A program made the translations under genes and the position numbers. From positions 1-9,206 of IMG/VR virus record IMGVR_UViG_2534681940_000023: DNA of 9,206 nucleotides; one strand, given 5' to 3'. Below are positions 938-9,206 of this stretch, piece by piece (position 1 is the stretch's first letter; each line of letters begins with the position of its first letter). Source of the DNA: a virus. Lineage: Duplodnaviria > Heunggongvirae > Uroviricota > Caudoviricetes. The notes below the pieces were generated by a model. It was not told the origin of the DNA, did not search any database, and saw only the letters and a program-made list of their open reading frames with translations.

Positions 938-1327
938 TCAGGCGGCTGCACCCGCCGTTTTCTCGTACTTACTGATAGTGATCTCGACCTTCCCTCCCGG
1001 GATAACCGGTCCCCACTCAACCAGCATTCTTTTCACCTGACTGTCGTCTTCCCACACACCCGCATGGGTCAGGGCGTCAAACAGCGCCTTGTTATAGTTG
1101 TCCAGATCGCGGATCCGGTTATCCGGCGGAAACAACACGATCTCCACTGAAGCAGGTGCCGACGTTGGTTTCGGCAGACGACGTAACTGCTCAACTATTG
1201 CTGCACACGCCGCGCTCTGGAATTTGCGCCCCGCCGCGCTTATCAGGCTCTTACCTGCAAACGCCCCTTTGTTGGGGTGTCGCCAGTACGTGTTCACGCT
1301 GGGCGGAAAAGGCAGGATCAGCTTCAT
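938..1327 (-). CDS. rusA: RusA Holliday-junction resolvase (crossover junction endodeoxyribonuclease)
   Basis: 129 aa; the RIRDLDNYNKALFDALT acidic motif and overall pattern fit the RusA family. Start ATG overlaps the upstream gene's stop as ATGA. Confidence 0.85.
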   Translation of the reverse strand: MKLILPFPPSVNTYWRHPNKGAFAGKSLISAAGRKFQSAACAAIVEQLRRLPKPTSAPASVEIVLFPPDNRIRDLDNYNKALFDALTHAGVWEDDSQVKRMLVEWGPVIPGGKVEITISKYEKTAGAAA

Positions 1328-1650
1328 ACTTTCAGGCCCCTCTCATGTAACCAGTGGGTTGCACGCAGCCTTGCGTTTTCCTCACCGGCAAGCAGTGCGC
1401 GGATAATCCCGACCGCCTCGCTGTCGTCGTCCTTCACCGCGGTATGAAGCGTTATCCCCCGGGCCACGCCACGCTTTATCGTGATGACGCCTTTTTTCTC
1501 CAGTGCGCGAAGATGCTCCACCGCTGCATTCACCGAACGGTATCCCAGCATGGTTGCCACCTCCTGATTGGTTGGCGGGAAGCCACGTTCTTTCTGATAA
1601 GAAATCAGCATATCCAACACCTGCTGCTGGCATTGAGTTAACGTCGTCAT
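1324..1650 (-). CDS. LexA-like N-terminal winged-helix DNA-binding protein (no peptidase domain)
   Basis: 108 aa; QQQVLDMLISYQKERGFPPTNQEVATMLGYRSVNAAVEHLRALEKKGVI resembles the LexA DNA-binding domain. ATGA overlap with the Dam gene stop. Confidence 0.6.
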   Translation of the reverse strand: MTTLTQCQQQVLDMLISYQKERGFPPTNQEVATMLGYRSVNAAVEHLRALEKKGVITIKRGVARGITLHTAVKDDDSEAVGIIRALLAGEENARLRATHWLHERGLKV

Positions 1651-2394: not shown

Positions 2395-3375
2395 TCACCC
2401 CCTGAATCCTGCCGGGATCTGGCTGTAGTCCACGTTGTCGTAACTGGCTTTGAAGTACGGGTCTTCACGTTTTTCTATGTGCGTGCTGACGGACGGCGAT
2501 AAGCGCAGGGAAAGCTCATCCCATTTTTCCCGCAACTTCGACGGGCTGAGCACGTTACGGCACCAGAACGGATCGCGGCTGACGCGGCTGTACATCTCGC
2601 AGATTTGTTTGTGAGTACGACCATCCTGCACACACATCAGGCGAATTTCGTTTGCCCATGCTGTCCAGTTCGGTTCTTTGGGACGAACCACCTCGCCGTC
2701 ACATTCGGCGGCCTGCTCGTACAGGGCGATGATTTTTTTCCAGAGCCACTGTGCGCAGGTCAAATCATCCTGCGTTCCCCACTGGCGCTTTTTAGGGCTG
2801 AATACAACCGCATCAGGATGGCGAGTTAAAAACTCCTGTTCAGCCGTTTGCGTGTCCGGTTGCGAAGCGTCCGGACGAGAAGAGGTTTTATTCTCTGTAG
2901 TAATCTCTGTTGTATTCTCTGTAAGATCGAAATTGGTTTTCCCTTCTCCGCGGCGAGGGGTTTCCCGTGTCCGCTGTGAAGGCTTTCCCTCCTCCGCGAA
3001 ATTGGGTTTTACAGTTTCCCGAAAACGGGTTTCCCCATTTCGGGAAAACTGATTGTTTTCATTGATAAGTTCATTAAGGCGCTCACAATCTATACGGTAG
3101 AACATTTTGTGCTCAAGACGCTTGTTGGTTTCAACCAAAATGCCTCTGGACACAAGATGCTTACGCGCTACAGCCTGTTGTTCAAATGTAAGTCCGGTTT
3201 CGTGTTGTATCTCTTCACGCGTTTTATGTACGCCTTCCGCTGCATGTGCTTTATCCTGCCAGTAAAAAATCTGACCAAAGAAAATAACAGCGTGCGGACT
3301 TCCCATGTATTTAACGAGCCCAGGGTAATAAGCAACCGGATGCCCAAAATCGAGCAGAAGATCAGACGGACGCAT
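2395..3375 (-). CDS. Replication initiation protein, O-like N-terminal region with DnaT-like C-terminal domain
   Basis: Central linker is encoded by iteron DNA, as in lambda O. The C-terminus ...YSQIPAGFRG resembles the C-terminal end of E. coli DnaT as I recall it. Likely start is ATG 3375 (GGGAGG SD 5 nt upstream); the track start at 3381 is GTG. Confidence 0.75.
   Translation of the reverse strand: MRPSDLLLDFGHPVAYYPGLVKYMGSPHAVIFFGQIFYWQDKAHAAEGVHKTREEIQHETGLTFEQQAVARKHLVSRGILVETNKRLEHKMFYRIDCERLNELINENNQFSRNGETRFRETVKPNFAEEGKPSQRTRETPRRGEGKTNFDLTENTTEITTENKTSSRPDASQPDTQTAEQEFLTRHPDAVVFSPKKRQWGTQDDLTCAQWLWKKIIALYEQAAECDGEVVRPKEPNWTAWANEIRLMCVQDGRTHKQICEMYSRVSRDPFWCRNVLSPSKLREKWDELSLRLSPSVSTHIEKREDPYFKASYDNVDYSQIPAGFRG
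2890..3050. repeat. Putative replication origin iterons inside the initiator gene
   Basis: Three 12-bp-period repeats with CTCTGT core (2893, 2905, 2917), then five ~23-bp-period repeats GG(G/C)TTTCCC..CCGCG starting 2935, 2957, 2981, 3004, 3027, including the palindrome CCCGAAAACGGG at 3018..3029. Confidence 0.6.
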
Positions 3376-3595
3376 AGCCACCTCCCAGACGCTTAAACAT
3401 TTTCCCGGACTGAAAAGCCACCAGCGGATAACTCAGGGTATGAGTACGCCCCTGAACCTGACAGACAACCTTCTGGCTTTCTGTGTTGACCAGACAAACC
3501 CGCAGAACGTGACCGTTGCTGGTGGTGAACCACTGCCCCACACGGGGGCAGTGGTTGTATCGGTGATACAGAGAATTCACAACACGACGAATCAT
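3362..3595 (-). CDS. Hypothetical protein (77 aa)
   Basis: ATG start overlaps the upstream stop as ATGA; its 3' end overlaps the O-like start. No recognisable family. Confidence 0.5.
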   Translation of the reverse strand: MIRRVVNSLYHRYNHCPRVGQWFTTSNGHVLRVCLVNTESQKVVCQVQGRTHTLSYPLVAFQSGKMFKRLGGGYASV

Positions 3596-3786
3596 GGACG
3601 CACCTCCGCCGTTGTGATGTATTTAACCGGGCTGCCTTTCATTGCGATGATTTCACACATCTCCGCTGCTTTACGTTCCGCTGTTTTCCTGGATTTATAG
3701 CGGCGGTGCCAAACAGACGTATCCGTGCGAACTGATACATCGTTTCTGTATTCCGTAGTGGAGATGATGATTTCGTAACTAATCAT
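3592..3786 (-). CDS. Hypothetical protein (64 aa)
   Basis: ATG start overlaps the Rha stop as ATGA (translational coupling). No recognisable family. Confidence 0.5.
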
Positions 3787-4346
3787 GGGCGTACCTCCTT
3801 GTCAGAACCATTCAGCCTGGAATCAACAAGTGCAGCACCAAAAACAGCATCACCTACACGGTCGTACAGTTTGCCAGCCAGCGGAGATTCAACAGCCTTA
3901 AGCATGGGATAAAGCTGGCTTCTCCAGATTTGATGGATTTCACGCAAATGCAGGTATACGCCTCTGGCGTTTTGTGCGACAGATGACATCTCAGCCGCAC
4001 CAGCTCCTGATAAGCTCCTCTCCATCTGGTTAAAGGCATTGATGTATGCCTCTTTGAACCGGGCGGCACGCTTGCCAGTGAAGCCCATAGCAAGGAATGC
4101 GAAGCCGTCGCGGGTGATTTGATAGCAGGGAAGTTTGCGAGTACCGCCGTTGGGCTGGCGTACCAAAATTGATGTCTCCGCAAAATTGCGGGCACAAAAC
4201 TCTGGAGAACAATCCAAAATGCGGATCTTTTTCAGAACATCGTCATGACGTTTAGAGAAGAAGTCAGCAACAGCCAAAGAAGATGTAACAGCCTGACCAT
4301 CAACGATGGCAATTTCAGGTTGAGAGAGAGTTGGGAAAGTAGTCAT
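3783..4346 (-). CDS. rha: Phage regulatory protein Rha (187 aa); C-terminal part of the 553-aa track ORF
   Basis: [32 protein letters not shown] is the Rha N-terminal domain signature, and it starts about 10 residues after the ATG at 4346, as in typical Rha proteins. AGGGG lies 9 nt upstream. Confidence 0.8.
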
Positions 4347-4638
4347 GGTGACAGCCCCTATGTTGAATTCAAAGAACTCACCACATGGGACGCCAATCAC
4401 AGAGGTGGTGAGACGTACAGGGTTGGCGTAACCGGTCAACATAGAACCCGGCGCATCTTGCGATGCCCCTGCACGCCCCACCATAATTTGGACGTAGCAA
4501 TGCTCATGATACGAAAAGACCGCATGAGCGCGGTTATGCTCTATATTGAATTCCAGGACGCCAATCCCGACACCCGCTTTATAAGGTGCCTGAACAGTGT
4601 AACGTCCCGAAATTGAGGAATCAATGTTTTGATAAAAT

Positions 4639-5031
4639 TCAGCGATTAGACGCTTCTTTTCTACCCATATTAACTTTGAACAAGAGCTCCATACGACGAG
4701 TCCAGACACCACGTTCTTTGAGTTGTGCTCTGGCTTCTTCGCGCTCAGATACGGAAGTTCTGACAATACGATTTCCAGCCAGATTGCGGCGATATTCTCC
4801 AAACGCGACTGACTGAAGGTATGCAGCGGAGCTTTTGTACTGATAGATGGCTCTTCGAAGGCTGTTTTTATATTCCTTAGGTATATGTCCGAGATCGGCA
4901 AAAAGCTCATGAACGATATCGTGAACAAGCGGAACAACTTTGTATGGAATAACAAAGAAGCTTTCTGGATAGCGTTCAGCCAATACTTTAATGATTTCTT
5001 TATTTGCAAGATGCCTTGCTTTTCTTCCCAT
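4639..5031 (-). CDS. ProQ/FinO-domain RNA-binding protein (130 aa)
   Basis: [17 protein letters not shown]...[18 protein letters not shown]...GNRIV...EEARAQLKE parallels the ProQ N-terminal FinO-like domain (KEVIAFLAERFP...LRSALRLYTSSWRYLYGV...EHARKQLEE, from memory). GGAG SD about 10 nt upstream of the ATG. Confidence 0.75.
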
Positions 5032-5091
5032 ATACCATTCTCCATTACTCCAGATATCAGAATGATATATCCAGGTTCAAGCAGTTCAAGC

Positions 5092-5444
5092 TTATGCTGG
5101 TGCTTCGCACTCAACAAAATCACGACGAAACAACCACAGCGGGCTGAAGCATTCATGCGGATAACCATCACGCAGGTAAATAACCCGCTGTGTTTCCGGT
5201 TCCCAACGAATGACTCTGACGGGCACTCCGTAGTGATCTTTGAACCAGCGGTTAACTTGTTGCAAAGGACTGTCTCCTTCTGCCGGTTGAAATCACCCAC
5301 AGCCCACTCTGCAAATCTGTGGGTTACAATTTCCCTGTCACCTGGTACATTCACTGCATAGCAATACTCCACCTTCGCTTTTCCACCCGGTACAGGAAGC
5401 GCAATCAGTTGCGAGCGACGGTAGTGTGTTGTTAAACTGTTCAT
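5092..5444 (-). pseudogene. Frameshifted gene of unknown function: N-terminal 50-60 aa in one frame, C-terminal 57 aa in the -1 frame
   Basis: ATG 5444 is ATGA-coupled to the upstream gene and encodes a protein-like [52 protein letters not shown], after which that frame turns low-complexity. The -1 frame from about 5292 to the TAA at 5092..5094 encodes [56 protein letters not shown]. Confidence 0.45.
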
Positions 5445-6082
5445 GCGTTAGTTTCTCCACAACCAGAAGCAATCGACGCCACGACGCCCGGAGCTGCACA
5501 CTCGCGGGCGTTACTCTTTTCCGGCGCACAAAAAACACGAAATAACAGTGTTAAATGCTCCTTCCACTTCGCCATTACTTGGTAGCTGTTCTCTTCGATT
5601 TGCTCACGCTCAGCCTGGTCAATAACTCCATCAGCAGTTGCCTTGCGTAAGTACTGGGAATGCTTGCCAATCCATTCTATTGACTCCATCAGCCGCTGAT
5701 TAATGTCACCATTGTCAATGTCATCAATGACCACCAGCGGCACAAACACCCCATTACTACGACGGGCTATTGCATCCGTTACATGCCTGGTACCACTGGC
5801 ATCCTGTAAAACCATGGCCCACTCAAGTGGAAAAATTTGATCCCCACCGCTACGCAGTCTGTTATGCAATTGATCTTTTGCTGGGGTGATATCATCAGAT
5901 TTATACAAACCAAGAATTTCTGCTGCTTCCTCATAGCCATGAGGTAAATCAGCAATCGTTCTTCGTATTGCTGCCACCAGCCATGCTGGTTGCTTATCAA
6001 CTTTCCATTCAGGTTCTTTACCCACGTTTAAGCCCTCATATCTGTGGTTTCTGTAAATCGATTTATCCATTAGATTTTTCAT
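5441..6082 (-). CDS. Phage regulatory protein in the CII/YdaT position (213 aa); function assignment tentative
   Basis: Sits immediately downstream of cro-like and upstream of the replication genes; the AAEILGL segment looks helix-turn-helix-like. Start taken at ATG 6082 (alternatives 6070 or the track's 6139, which would overlap cro by 77 nt). Confidence 0.5.
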
Positions 6083-6263
6083 AAAGCTCAGGTTTAAATG
6101 GCAACCGTCCGCAAGTTCTATATGCAGCCTCTGCTGCACGTCCTTTTGGAATTAACTGGCCAGGACGGTTTCGCCACTGATAAACGGCTTCAGTTGTTAT
6201 GCCGAAAAAAGCAGCAACTTTCTCAATGCTGCCGAAGTAGCTTTCGATATCGTCAGTCGTCAT
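6063..6263 (-). CDS. cro: Cro-like HTH transcriptional regulator (66 aa)
   Basis: Small HTH protein (SIEKVAAFFGITTEAVYQWRNR) divergent from the cI-like gene; GGAGGG SD upstream of ATG 6263. Confidence 0.75.
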   Translation of the reverse strand: MTTDDIESYFGSIEKVAAFFGITTEAVYQWRNRPGQLIPKGRAAEAAYRTCGRLPFKPELYEKSNG

Positions 6264-6360: not shown

Positions 6361-6987
6361 ATGGAAACGGTTGGTCAGCGTATAAAAGCTCTGAGAAGAG
6401 TTACCAGAACGTCCCAGAAAGAATTGGGTAAATTTTGTGGAGTAAGTGACGTTGCTGTGGGGTACTGGGAGAAAGACATCAATGTCCCTGGTGGGGAAGC
6501 ACTTTCAAAATTAGCGAAGTTCTTCAATACGTCAATAGATTACATTCTTTATGGTGCGGAGTTTGAAGGCAAACTCGTCACAAACATGCGCAGAGTTCCT
6601 GTAATCTCGTGGGTTCAGGCTGGGCAGTTTACTGAGTGCAGGACAGCAGAAGTGTTTAGTGAAGTAGACAAGTGGGTAGATACATCATTAAAGATTGGTG
6701 ATAACTCATTTGCATTGGAGGTTAAAGGCGACTCCATGACTAACCCTAACGGCCTCCCAACAATACCAGAAGGCGCAACAGTGATTGTAGATCCTGATGC
6801 AGAACCCCGGCATGGAAAAATAGTCATCGCTAGACTTGATGGAACAAACGAAGCCACAGTAAAAAAATTAGTTATCGATGGCCCTCAAAAGTTTTTAGTG
6901 CCATTAAATCCCCGGTACCCCAACATTCCGATCAATGGTAATTGCCTCATCATTGGTGTAGTCAAAGGAGTTCAATACGAACTCTAG
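6361..6987 (+). CDS. cI-like prophage repressor, HTH N-terminal domain with S24 (LexA-like) autopeptidase C-terminal domain
   Basis: 208 aa; N-terminal HTH; Ala87-Gly88 candidate cleavage site (VQAG); Ser125 in GDSM and Lys168/169 (VKKL) match the S24 catalytic dyad. Confidence 0.9.
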   Translation: METVGQRIKALRRVTRTSQKELGKFCGVSDVAVGYWEKDINVPGGEALSKLAKFFNTSIDYILYGAEFEGKLVTNMRRVPVISWVQAGQFTECRTAEVFSEVDKWVDTSLKIGDNSFALEVKGDSMTNPNGLPTIPEGATVIVDPDAEPRHGKIVIARLDGTNEATVKKLVIDGPQKFLVPLNPRYPNIPINGNCLIIGVVKGVQYEL

Positions 6988-7075: not shown

Positions 7076-7164
7076 CAAAGATAACGAACAGGCAGGACGC
7101 CCACGAAGTAGCCGACGGTGGCGTATGAATGACCGGATGATTCGCGCATGGCAGGAGAGTGAAT

Positions 7165-7533
7165 ATGGATGGCAGTATCGACAACCAACGAGATGCCTGG
7201 CTTGTGGTGATTGAAGCAGCAAAAACTGCATTAAGCCAAGTTGAAAGCAGTAACTACAGAACAGTTAAACAAATGGCTTTGGGCTCTATTATCTATGCCT
7301 TTGAAAGGCTGGACTTTGATTTTGAAGCAACGAGTATTCTGTCAGAACAACATGAAAAAATGAATAGAGAAGACGCCGCAGCCTATATCGGCGTAGAAGC
7401 GCAAACCTTAGCTAATTGGGCTAGCACAGGAAAAGTTCGAATACCTTTTTTAAAAATCGGTAGAAAGGTTATTTACCTAAAAAGTGATCTTGATGCCTAT
7501 CTTGCCTCATCGAAGGCAAATACCACCAAGTAG
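7165..7533 (+). CDS. HTH (AlpA/excisionase-like HTH_17-type) DNA-binding protein, 122 aa; first gene of the leftward-type early operon
   Basis: C-terminal REDAAAYIGVEAQTLANWASTGKVRIPFLKIGRKVIYLKSDLDAYL resembles an AlpA/Xis-type HTH. AGGAGA SD 6 nt upstream of ATG 7165 (the track start at 7159 is GTG). Confidence 0.6.
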   Translation: MDGSIDNQRDAWLVVIEAAKTALSQVESSNYRTVKQMALGSIIYAFERLDFDFEATSILSEQHEKMNREDAAAYIGVEAQTLANWASTGKVRIPFLKIGRKVIYLKSDLDAYLASSKANTTK

Positions 7534-7739
7534 CTCACGTACCTACCACCTCGCCTGATGTGGCTAAAAGCAGGCACATAACAGCTAAGTATTTTCAACC
7601 AGAGAGAATCCTTAGCGTTGTGGTGAATGCGGCTCAGCGCACGCGGGTTAAGGTTGAGACTGACAGTCGACCTTCTGTGGATACCCACCCGCCTGGTGTG
7701 CAACCTTCGCCAGGCACCGGGAGGCACCCGGCACCACAA

Positions 7740-7799
7740 CAGCCACTGCTTTGGCGGTACCAGTTTGTACACTTGCTTCCGGCTGGTACCGCTCTTTTT
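7740..7799 (+). ncRNA. dicF: DicF-like small RNA (candidate)
   Basis: GCTTTGGCGGTACCAGTTTGTAC... closely resembles the core of E. coli DicF (GTTTGGCGGTATCAGTTTTAC..., from memory) and ends in an intrinsic terminator. The 5' end is not determinable from sequence. Confidence 0.45.
7754..7799 (+). terminator. Rho-independent terminator of the DicF-like sRNA
   Basis: 10-bp GC-rich stem GCGGTACCAG (7754..7763) pairing with CTGGTACCGC (7783..7792), 19-nt loop, then TCTTTTT (7793..7799). Confidence 0.6.
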
Positions 7800-7888
7800 A
7801 CAAAACAGAGAAGAGCATCACCGGACGACGGGCTCATAACCCAATCCACCCGGGCGGCTGCCACCGCAGGTGCTCTTCTCTGTTTTGT
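7800..7888 (+). repeat. 18-bp perfect inverted repeat (ACAAAACAGAGAAGAGCA / TGCTCTTCTCTGTTTTGT) with 53-nt spacer; candidate long RNA hairpin
   Basis: Left arm 7800..7817 is the exact reverse complement of right arm 7871..7888. The stem can extend with G-U pairs into the terminator U-tract. It lies 35-50 nt upstream of the RBS of the next gene. Confidence 0.8.
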
Positions 7889-7936
7889 GGAGAAACCAAC
7901 CGACCTTGCAGGGTCGATATGATGAGGAGCAGCAAA

Positions 7937-8299
7937 ATGGCTAGCGAACGCAGTACTGATGTGCAGGCATTTATCGGGGAGCTGGACGGCGGCGTATTTG
8001 AAACCAAAATCGGCGCTGTTCTCAGTGAAGTCGCTTCAGGTGTGATGAACACGAAAACCAAAGGGAAGGTCTCGCTCAACCTGGAAATCGAACCGTTTGA
8101 TGAGAACCGTGTGAAAATAAAACACAAACTCTCATATGTTCGTCCGACTAACCGCGGGAAAATTTCCGAAGAAGACACCACCGAAACGCCGATGTATGTC
8201 AATCGCGGTGGTCGCCTGACTATTCTGCAGGAAGACCAGGGACAATTACTGACTCTTGCCGGTGAACCTGACGGAAAACTCCGCGCAGCAGGTCATTAA
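7937..8299 (+). CDS. Hypothetical protein, 120 aa (YfdP-like, by size and context)
   Basis: GAGGAG SD 7 nt upstream of ATG 7937; the track ORF start at 7751 runs through the sRNA and hairpin and is rejected. Identity with CPS-53 prophage YfdP is from recollection of size and gene order only. Confidence 0.6.
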   Translation: MASERSTDVQAFIGELDGGVFETKIGAVLSEVASGVMNTKTKGKVSLNLEIEPFDENRVKIKHKLSYVRPTNRGKISEEDTTETPMYVNRGGRLTILQEDQGQLLTLAGEPDGKLRAAGH

Positions 8300-8364
8300 T
8301 ATCGTTCTTAATTAACTGATTATTTATCTCATCACTGAATATCCTTATATAGTGAGGACTTATT

Positions 8365-9189
8365 ATGTCTCAGAACTTAGACGCAACCGCAATTAATCAA
8401 ATCCATGCCCTTATTTCTGCTCAGGGTGTTAATGAAATTATTAGTAAGATTGGTGCCGATGCTGTGGCATTGCCTGAGAATTTCCGCATTCATGATCTGG
8501 AAAAATTTAATTTAAATCGCTTCCGTTTCCGTGGTGCGCTTTCCACTGCCAGCATCGATGACTTTACCCGTTATTCTAAAGATCTTGCAGATGAAGGCAC
8601 CCGCTGCTTTATCGATGCCGATAATATGCGTGCCGTCAGTGTGCTTAACCTGGGTACTATTGATGAACCAGGTCACGCAGATAACACCGCCACTCTCAAA
8701 CTGAAAAAGACAGCACCGTTCTCTGCTCTGTTGTCTGTTAATGGCGAGCGTAACTCCCAAAAGTCACTGGCAGAATGGATTGAAGACTGGGCCGACTACC
8801 TTGTGGGCTTTGATGCTAATGGTGACGCCATTCAGGCAACCAAAGCGGCTGCGGCGATCCGTAAAATCACAATTGAAGCGAACCAGACCGCTGATTTTGA
8901 AGACAATGACTTCAGCGGCAAACGCTCCCTGATGGAGTCTGTCGAAGCGAAGACCAAAGACATTATGCCAGTGGCATTTGAATTTAAATGCGTTCCGTTT
9001 GAAGGCCTGAAAGAACGTCCGTTTAAATTACGCCTCAGCATTATCACTGGCGATCGTCCTGTACTGGTTCTGCGCATTATTCAGCTGGAAGCGGTGCAGG
9101 AAGAAATGGCTAACGAATTTCGTGATCTGCTTGTTGAGAAATTTAAAGACAGCAAAGTAGAAACCTTTATTGGTACTTTCACCGCCTGA
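8365..9189 (+). CDS. Hypothetical protein, 274 aa (YfdQ-like, DUF2303-type, by size and context)
   Basis: GTGAGGA SD upstream of ATG 8365; clean protein-like 274-aa ORF. Identity with CPS-53 prophage YfdQ is from recollection of size and gene order only. Confidence 0.7.
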
Positions 9190-9206
9190 TTTCATTACTG
9201 CAAATG

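Follow-up and report, generated by a model that had tools for sequence, protein, structure and literature searches.

The two genes at positions 7,937 to 9,189 of the analysed DNA were identified as yfdP and yfdQ, a standard copy of an already known and very common phage gene pair and not a new kind of element. Both are genuine genes rather than chance ORFs, and they form one unit which was never split in the loci examined. Neither protein displays a recognisable fold, YfdQ has a homologue solved with 36 identical chains, and the pair is repeatedly found next to genes of DNA and nucleotide metabolism. A function as an accessory module of phage recombination or replication is tentatively preferred here.

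The whole stretch of DNA (9,206 nucleotides, hereafter the window) corresponds to the immunity and early region of a lambdoid E. coli prophage, as revealed by Pfam analysis of its ORFs (Table 1). On the plus strand, the gene for the CI repressor is followed by an HTH_17 gene, about 400 nt of non-coding structured leader, yfdP and yfdQ. The early-left position given to the pair in the initial annotation was thus correct, as were the two ORFs of 120 and 274 codons, each preceded by a strong ribosome-binding site.

Table 1. Features of the window.
Feature	Position	Strand	Details
KilA-N protein gene		-	Pfam
RusA gene		-	Pfam
LexA-DNA-binding-domain protein	1324-1650	-	108 aa; located between Dam and RusA
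Dam gene		-	Pfam
Replication protein	2395-3381	-	328 aa; replication-initiator position; no Pfam match
Ash/Rha antirepressor region	3783-5444	-	553-aa ORF; Pfam Ash and Rha only, residues 282-476
CII(CP76)-like ORF	5441-6139	-	232 aa; CP76 match only at residues 105-191
Cro ORF	6063-6263	-	Pfam
S24 CI repressor	6361-6987	+	Pfam
HTH_17 protein (excisionase/MerR-like)	7159-7533	+	124 aa; between cI and leader
Structured leader	7599-7917	+	STnc100-like RNA with terminator-like hairpin, hairpin with 25-bp stem, short hairpin before ribosome-binding site
yfdP ribosome-binding site	7921-7936	+	GAGGAG, 7-nt spacer to ATG
yfdP	7937-8299	+	ATG start, 120 aa, stop included; Pfam PF27127, PHROG 204
yfdP-yfdQ spacer	8300-8364	+	65 nt, A+T-rich; contains yfdQ ribosome-binding site GAGGA, 6-nt spacer to ATG
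yfdQ	8365-9189	+	ATG start, 274 aa; DUF2303/PF10065, PHROG 210

Several observations were made on the remaining genes of the window. The 108-aa protein consists of the LexA DNA-binding domain alone, without the S24 peptidase part, and may be a non-cleavable LexA mimic. The 328-aa replication protein is named 'Primosomal protein I' in phage mEp460_4F5 and is not followed by a helicase-loader gene, which agrees with the single-gene replication module of phage LLS (PMC12315714). On the minus strand, C4 antisense RNA (80 bits) and isrK RNA (54 bits) were both detected above threshold at 4401-4589, within the 5' part of the 553-aa Ash/Rha ORF. This ORF is probably over-extended, and the C4/isrK/Ash/Rha region resembles a c4-antirepressor immunity module of P1/P7 type that has been inserted into the lambdoid early-right region; phage mEp460_4F5 does not carry this insert. 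In its listed extent, the CII-like ORF shares 77 nt with the Cro ORF, and the true start of the former is probably located further downstream. The 124-aa HTH_17 protein gave a weak PADLOC match to mad1 of the 'mads' system (E 6e-5).

The identity of both proteins was established by profile searches. YfdQ matched Pfam DUF2303 (PF10065) with an E value of 6e-93 and 311.4 bits (cut-off 26.6), in an alignment running from end to end (residues 7-272 on profile positions 2-269 of 269), and PHROG 210 with an E value of 6e-120. YfdP matched PHROG 204 (E 1.2e-49). Its assignment to PF27127, the family named YfdP, was taken from the precomputed annotation of the 99%-identical cluster P0121 ('protein YfdP'), a direct search of a Pfam copy without this model having given 0 matches, and NCBIfam contained no model matching either protein. 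Identity is about 99% for YfdP with its RefSeq counterpart and for YfdQ with the best-matching cluster. At the DNA level, positions 7500-9206 matched 3046 of 5426 complete E. coli genomes (RefSeq), at up to six places per genome, where the genes are annotated as yfdP and yfdQ. The same DNA is shared with phages mEp460_4F5 (98.4% identity), SfV and SfIV (both around 97%; overall range 96.7-98.4%), and several Stx2-converting phages also match it. The resemblance to yfdP/yfdQ (DUF2303) of CPS-53, which the initial annotation had pointed out, was therefore right, since the matching E. coli DNA bears these names and since the families, the gene order and the sizes all agree. The similarity and HMM searches which it had suggested thus led to two known families, YfdP and DUF2303, and to no strong homology with proteins of established function.

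Both ORFs were intact in all 80 related loci of IMG/VR, and purifying selection was evident from the pooled pN/pS ratios calculated against the window sequence (0.03 for yfdP and 0.02 for yfdQ), values which have a downward bias, as protein identity had served to rank the loci. The IMG/VR scan returned near-identical E. coli copies only, and a more diverse alignment (A3) contained no stretch conserved enough for genome scanning. Stronger evidence that the genes are real is provided by distant homologues with 25-45% protein identity in phages of Xanthomonas, Pseudomonas/Stutzerimonas, Vibrio, Thalassomonas, Psychrobacter and Acinetobacter. The length of YfdQ barely varies between E. coli and Acinetobacter (269-285 aa). 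The antisense ORF at 7834-8202 is a shadow of yfdP.

The association of the two genes turned out to be strict. In all of 11 diverse phages, yfdQ is directly preceded on its own strand by the gene for a YfdP homologue (HMM E values from 1e-23 to 1e-62), and 15-63 nt separate the two. The survey was extended by HMM scoring of all ORFs at the loci with a complete YfdQ ORF, and YfdP was found directly upstream of YfdQ in 79 of these 79 loci, representing about 75 bacterial species. The window displays the same arrangement, with a spacer of 65 nt. Among E. coli prophages, the mosaic unit is composed of a leader of about 240-440 bp, yfdP, yfdQ and usually yfdR.

The 'sRNA/hairpin module' which had been noticed ahead of the pair is real. 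The region 7599-7801 gave an STnc100-like match of 36 bits, below the Rfam threshold of 47 (E 4e-6 for the region), and the 3' end of this RNA is a terminator-like hairpin with a U-run. It is followed by a hairpin with a perfect 25-bp stem at about 7795-7892 and by a third one at 7900-7917. Folding of positions 7740-7936 gave a z-score of -7.0. The leader, in part, co-travels with yfdPQ in other E. coli prophages, and may serve the early-left transcript as a terminator or antiterminator.

Usable single-chain models of both proteins were produced with AlphaFold2. YfdP (pLDDT 81.5) was predicted as two helices packed on a three-stranded antiparallel sheet, followed by a flexible tail. The motif P70-T71-x-R73-G74-K75 is located at the tip of a hairpin; among 12 diverse phages, P70, R73 and G74 never change, T71 hardly ever does and K75 is variable. 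The model of YfdQ reached a pLDDT of 77 and includes a poorly defined loop at residues 176-198, which is among the most conserved sequence of the protein despite the low model confidence. Alignments of 12 and 20 diverse homologues revealed T61, Y70, F82, G97, H104, L113, R166, L215, A249, F252 and G270 as invariant residues of YfdQ, and all family-invariant residues are present in the protein of the window. Both proteins are acidic and contain no enzymatic motifs; YfdQ has a pI of about 5, and Arg, His, Tyr and Thr predominate among its conserved positions.

The structure prediction and structural-homology search which had also been proposed gave no recognisable known fold for either protein. 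Against fold libraries which did not contain the entry 9o7m, Foldseek returned no solved structure at E ≤ 0.001 for the model of YfdQ, and no convincing neighbour was obtained for either model. No similarity, in sequence or in fold, was detected to any annealing protein, SSB, nuclease or DNA-binding fold. Some specific candidates were also considered. A paralogous relationship of YfdP with a domain of YfdQ was rejected (hhalign probability 0.15%), and YfdP did not display the fold that defines the DNABII proteins HU and IHF, namely a helical body with beta-ribbon arms. Neither sequence nor fold placed the pair among the single-strand annealing proteins (SSAPs: RecT, Erf, Rad52/Redbeta). The YfdP family comprises 569 clusters at 50% identity, of which the best 150 are, almost without exception, proteins of about 110-130 aa that stand alone; no informative domain fusion was found, the apparent fusion P0395 being a chimeric call.

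One solved relative of YfdQ was identified. A profile search of the PDB with the broad YfdQ alignment gave 9o7m ('YfdQ Protein') as the sole match, an entry with 36 identical chains of one 274-aa sequence. YfdQ of the window aligned with it over residues 16-273 (E 8e-45 with the single protein, 2e-94 with the family profile), with a BLAST identity of about 38%. The structure thus shows the homologue either in a very large assembly or, at the least, as 36 copies within one asymmetric unit, and YfdQ of the window may be oligomeric as well. The corresponding search with YfdP returned no relative, only spurious matches to AcrB (E about 0.03-0.1). The sequence of 9o7m is 98.8% identical to YfdQ of Xanthomonas phage MET23-P3, a CP2-like podophage. 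For the capsid of MET23-P3 the PDB holds homologues only, none from this phage, and neither its Erf protein nor the ORF adjoining yfdQ gave a PDB match, so that 9o7m does not belong to a virion study of that phage. In the literature search, no paper mentioning the code 9o7m or PF10065 was found.

The gene neighbourhood provides the chief new evidence on the pair. Genes for SSAPs, exonucleases and SSB lie beside it in at least five lineages, and the recombination families involved differ between independent lineages. The order is Kil-Gam-RecT-Exo-SSB-P-Q in Stx phage VT2phi_272, Erf-YqaJ exonuclease-DnaQ-like-P-Q-SSB in Vibrio podophage 64E30.1, Erf-RecE-like-P-Q in Thalassomonas BA3, P-Q-ORF-Erf-exonuclease-SSB in Xanthomonas CP2 and MET23-P3, RecT-YqaJ/gp5.9 fusion-P-Q in a Pontibacterium genome and YqaJ-P-Q in Kistimonas; in Burkholderia phage JC1, RecT and YqaJ are encoded a few genes away from the DUF2303 gene (PMC9144972). 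Neighbours were also clustered over four genes on each side at 76 mostly enterobacterial loci. Downstream, a YfdR-like HD phosphohydrolase was present in 48 of the 76, mostly as the very next gene, and a Rv2179c-like DEDD 3'-5' exonuclease in 22, while the upstream families were S24 repressor, Cro and CII-like proteins. Taken together, the recombination, HD and DEDD neighbours place the pair in the company of DNA and nucleotide metabolism, both its enzymes and its binding proteins. MET23-P3, a record without annotated integrase, carries the pair as well. Some adjacency to Rec genes is to be expected by chance because early-left operons are short, and many carriers, including the closest relatives of the window, have no Rec genes near the pair.

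Additional features were observed at some of these loci. In the Pontibacterium metagenome-assembled genome (L172:3029-4612, plus strand), the protein encoded directly between RecT and YfdP-YfdQ is 528 aa long and combines an N-terminal YqaJ exonuclease (residues 13-147) with a C-terminal domain resembling the RecBCD inhibitor gp5.9 of T7 (PF25708, residues 486-521, E 2e-13). The YfdP homologues of MET23-P3 (L094:28717-29091, minus strand) and of Vibrio phage vB_ValP_FGH (L091:3566-3973, plus strand) are annotated as 'translation elongation factor', a label for which the latter record cites ACLAME 760 and which has no sequence support. Right after yfdQ in CP2, ORF36 (L001:3933-5468, plus strand; 511 aa) gave a sub-threshold match to DUF1351 (26.3 vs 27.8 bits). 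A large gene follows yfdQ also in MET23-P3 (401 aa) and in a metagenomic contig (L093, at least 387 aa), and ORF36 of CP2 may be a lineage-specific third partner.

The literature search revealed no established function for yfdP or yfdQ, as the initial annotation had stated: the genes 'have no known function' according to a recent study (PMC12315714, 2025), and the role of YfdQ was described as unclear earlier (PMC4776307, 2016). Experimental data on the pair nevertheless exist. Noguchi and Katayama reported that multicopy yfdQ, when combined with yfdR plus yfdS or yfdT, inhibits initiation at oriC, both in vivo and in extracts, that yfdQ is required for this effect and yfdP dispensable, and that YfdR binds DnaA domain I at the site used by DnaB and DiaA (PMC4776307). 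In pull-downs, YfdQ bound strongly to neither YfdR nor DnaA, deletion of yfdQRST left initiation unaffected, and the authors allowed that the inhibition is possibly an artefact of overexpression (PMC4776307). Reports cited in the same paper attribute a raised sensitivity to MMS and H2O2 to the deletion of yfdQ. In a study on phage LLS in Genome Research, the pair was regarded as unlikely to encode hidden recombinases because some phages possess it together with a full Rec module (PMC12315714). LLS itself carries the pair, and its growth was linked by the authors to a RecBCD-promoted, Chi-rich, recombination-dependent mode; the phages closest to the window have an O-like replication gene only and no helicase loader (PMC12315714). 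According to a preprint, overproduction of YfdQ triggers plaques of phage SW1 in a CPS-53-dependent manner (bioRxiv 10.1101/413146). In phage JC1, the DUF2303 protein gp10 was detected by mass spectrometry in CsCl-purified virions with five unique peptides, and an association with DNA or a protection of DNA ends was proposed (PMC9144972). Finally, the yfdPQ operon of E. coli K-12 is transcribed, and the host regulator SrsR binds to the upstream spacer (PMC9181523).

All these elements are tentatively brought together in the following reading. yfdP and yfdQ would form an obligate two-gene phage module, transcribed early as part of the leftward operon, behind a leader rich in terminators. YfdQ would assemble into a large homo-oligomer, acting on DNA intermediates or on the proteins which process them, such as SSB, annealing protein or exonuclease, or host DnaA/DnaB via YfdR. 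YfdP would be a small partner or adaptor in possible contact with YfdQ, working through the conserved P-T-x-R-G-K hairpin tip, and either protein may bind DNA or nucleoprotein. An accessory role in recombination or replication is favoured by the recurrence of annealing-protein, exonuclease, SSB, HD and DEDD neighbours across unrelated lineages, by the strict pairing and the 36 chains of 9o7m, by the replication and DNA-damage phenotypes together with the co-purification of the JC1 homologue with virions and DNA, and by the deep, length-constant conservation with an Arg/His/Tyr-rich conserved set in an acidic protein. Against it stand the lack of likeness, in fold or sequence, to DNA-binding families, the pull-down results and the dispensability of yfdP in the initiation assay (PMC4776307), the argument against hidden recombinases (PMC12315714), and the chance adjacency and Rec-less carriers mentioned above.

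Among the alternatives, an anti-defence or host-takeover module which does not act on DNA appears rather unlikely, though it is the most probable of them. There, the target that the YfdQ oligomer sequesters or blocks would be an immune or housekeeping factor of the host, or else a nucleotide signal, and the adjoining HD phosphohydrolase and DEDD exonuclease, frequent as they are, might degrade such signals. The acidic character of both proteins and their lack of enzymatic motifs suit this explanation, and so does the early operon shared with inhibitors of host nucleases, Gam in VT2phi_272 and the gp5.9-like domain in Pontibacterium. The module is moreover non-essential and not universal among lambdoid phages (PMC12315714), and overproduced YfdQ altered the behaviour of another phage, SW1 (bioRxiv 10.1101/413146). 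However, E. coli and Xanthomonas share 38-45% identity and the same 274 aa, a depth of conservation and a constancy of length that are unusual in a counter-defence protein, the pairing is strict, and every Xanthomonas/Xylella CP2-like phage record among the matches listed has a YfdQ match. No defence family of PADLOC-DB v2 matched YfdP or YfdQ at E ≤ 1, in a library made of defence rather than anti-defence proteins. The initial annotation had proposed the pair as candidates for a defence or anti-defence function. Of this proposal the anti-defence part is kept as a rival, and an accessory role in DNA metabolism fits somewhat better because of the empty PADLOC search, the integrase-less record and the neighbours of recombination and nucleotide metabolism. 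As for defence or superinfection exclusion expressed by the prophage in the lysogen, it is the least probable of the explanations considered, hardly to be expected: the pair adjoins the immunity region, a frequent site of exclusion genes, and the K-12 operon is transcribed and bound by SrsR (PMC9181523), but the genes lie behind a terminator-like, highly structured leader, gave no PADLOC match, and occur within recombination modules as well as in a phage record lacking an annotated integrase.

The experiments of Noguchi and Katayama suggest a shut-off of host replication, in which YfdQ helps YfdR and YfdS or YfdT to block DnaA-dependent initiation at oriC and thereby frees DnaB and replication resources for the phage. 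The requirement for yfdQ in the multicopy assays and the binding of YfdR to DnaA domain I (PMC4776307) speak for it, together with the position of yfdR after yfdQ in 48 of the 76 enterobacterial loci, the mosaic unit formed by yfdP, yfdQ and yfdR, and the replication module of the phages nearest to the window, with its O-like gene and no helicase loader (PMC12315714). This explanation is nonetheless improbable: yfdP is not needed, the yfdQRST deletion had no effect on initiation and the inhibition may come from overexpression (PMC4776307), and the sampled phages of Vibrio, Xanthomonas, Psychrobacter and Acinetobacter have YfdPQ with no YfdR-like gene nearby. A DNA-associated protein which is packaged with the genome, or accompanies it, and shields it during entry, as proposed for T4 gp2, is very improbable. 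The five peptides of gp10 in purified JC1 virions and the DNA-end protection proposed from them (PMC9144972) are a single proteomic observation of low score, a megadalton oligomer could simply co-purify, and in every phage examined the gene is located in an early operon, far from the virion genes. Inhibition of RecBCD in the manner of Gam or T7 gp5.9 was also considered; no Pfam match supports it, and it is unlikely because both Gam and a gp5.9-like domain are encoded alongside the pair and because phages reported to depend on RecBCD carry the pair (LLS, PMC12315714).

With the accessory role in recombination or replication retained as the tentative preference, its consequences can be considered. 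Over half of the complete E. coli genomes match the yfdPQ DNA, and at least eight further genera have phages with homologues. If this role holds true, the pair would add a missing component to the models of lambdoid replication and recombination, especially for phages without a Rec module or helicase loader. In a more far-reaching and rather doubtful version, YfdQ would found a new structural class of megadalton DNA-associated accessory proteins with a fold unrelated to OB-fold SSBs or Rad52-like annealing proteins and with YfdP as obligate adaptor. The pair would then supply a step required for the use of host RecBCD or DnaA-DnaB by lambdoid phages in which a canonical Rec module or helicase loader is missing. 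To the known gene pair, the present analysis adds the strict P-Q pairing, counts for the DNA-metabolism genes around it, the lack of any known fold and a pointer to the 36-chain structure.

Phage recombination modules include a number of accessory genes, such as those for lambda Gam and Orf, P22 Abc1/Abc2 and Arf, and T7 gp5.9. These share the niche of the pair, as they encode small non-enzymatic proteins in early operons beside annealing protein, exonuclease and SSB, but none of them is similar to YfdPQ in sequence or fold. The SSAPs (RecT/Redbeta, Erf, Rad52-like) share the neighbourhood of YfdPQ, and they form large oligomers, as the single solved YfdQ homologue appears to do. This homologue, known here only as the 36 identical chains of 9o7m, is full-length with the same 274 aa as YfdQ of the window and about 38% identity at the BLAST level, and its phage also encodes a YfdP homologue directly upstream. 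The closest known systems are those of CPS-53 (KpLE1) of E. coli K-12, mEp460_4F5, SfV (orf32/orf31), SfIV and ST64B (sb37/sb36), which have the same families in the same order, sizes and early-left position as the window. Upstream of the pair, the window keeps its immunity region intact (cI, cro, cII-like), while in K-12 yfdO lies beside yfdP; otherwise nothing material differs between them.
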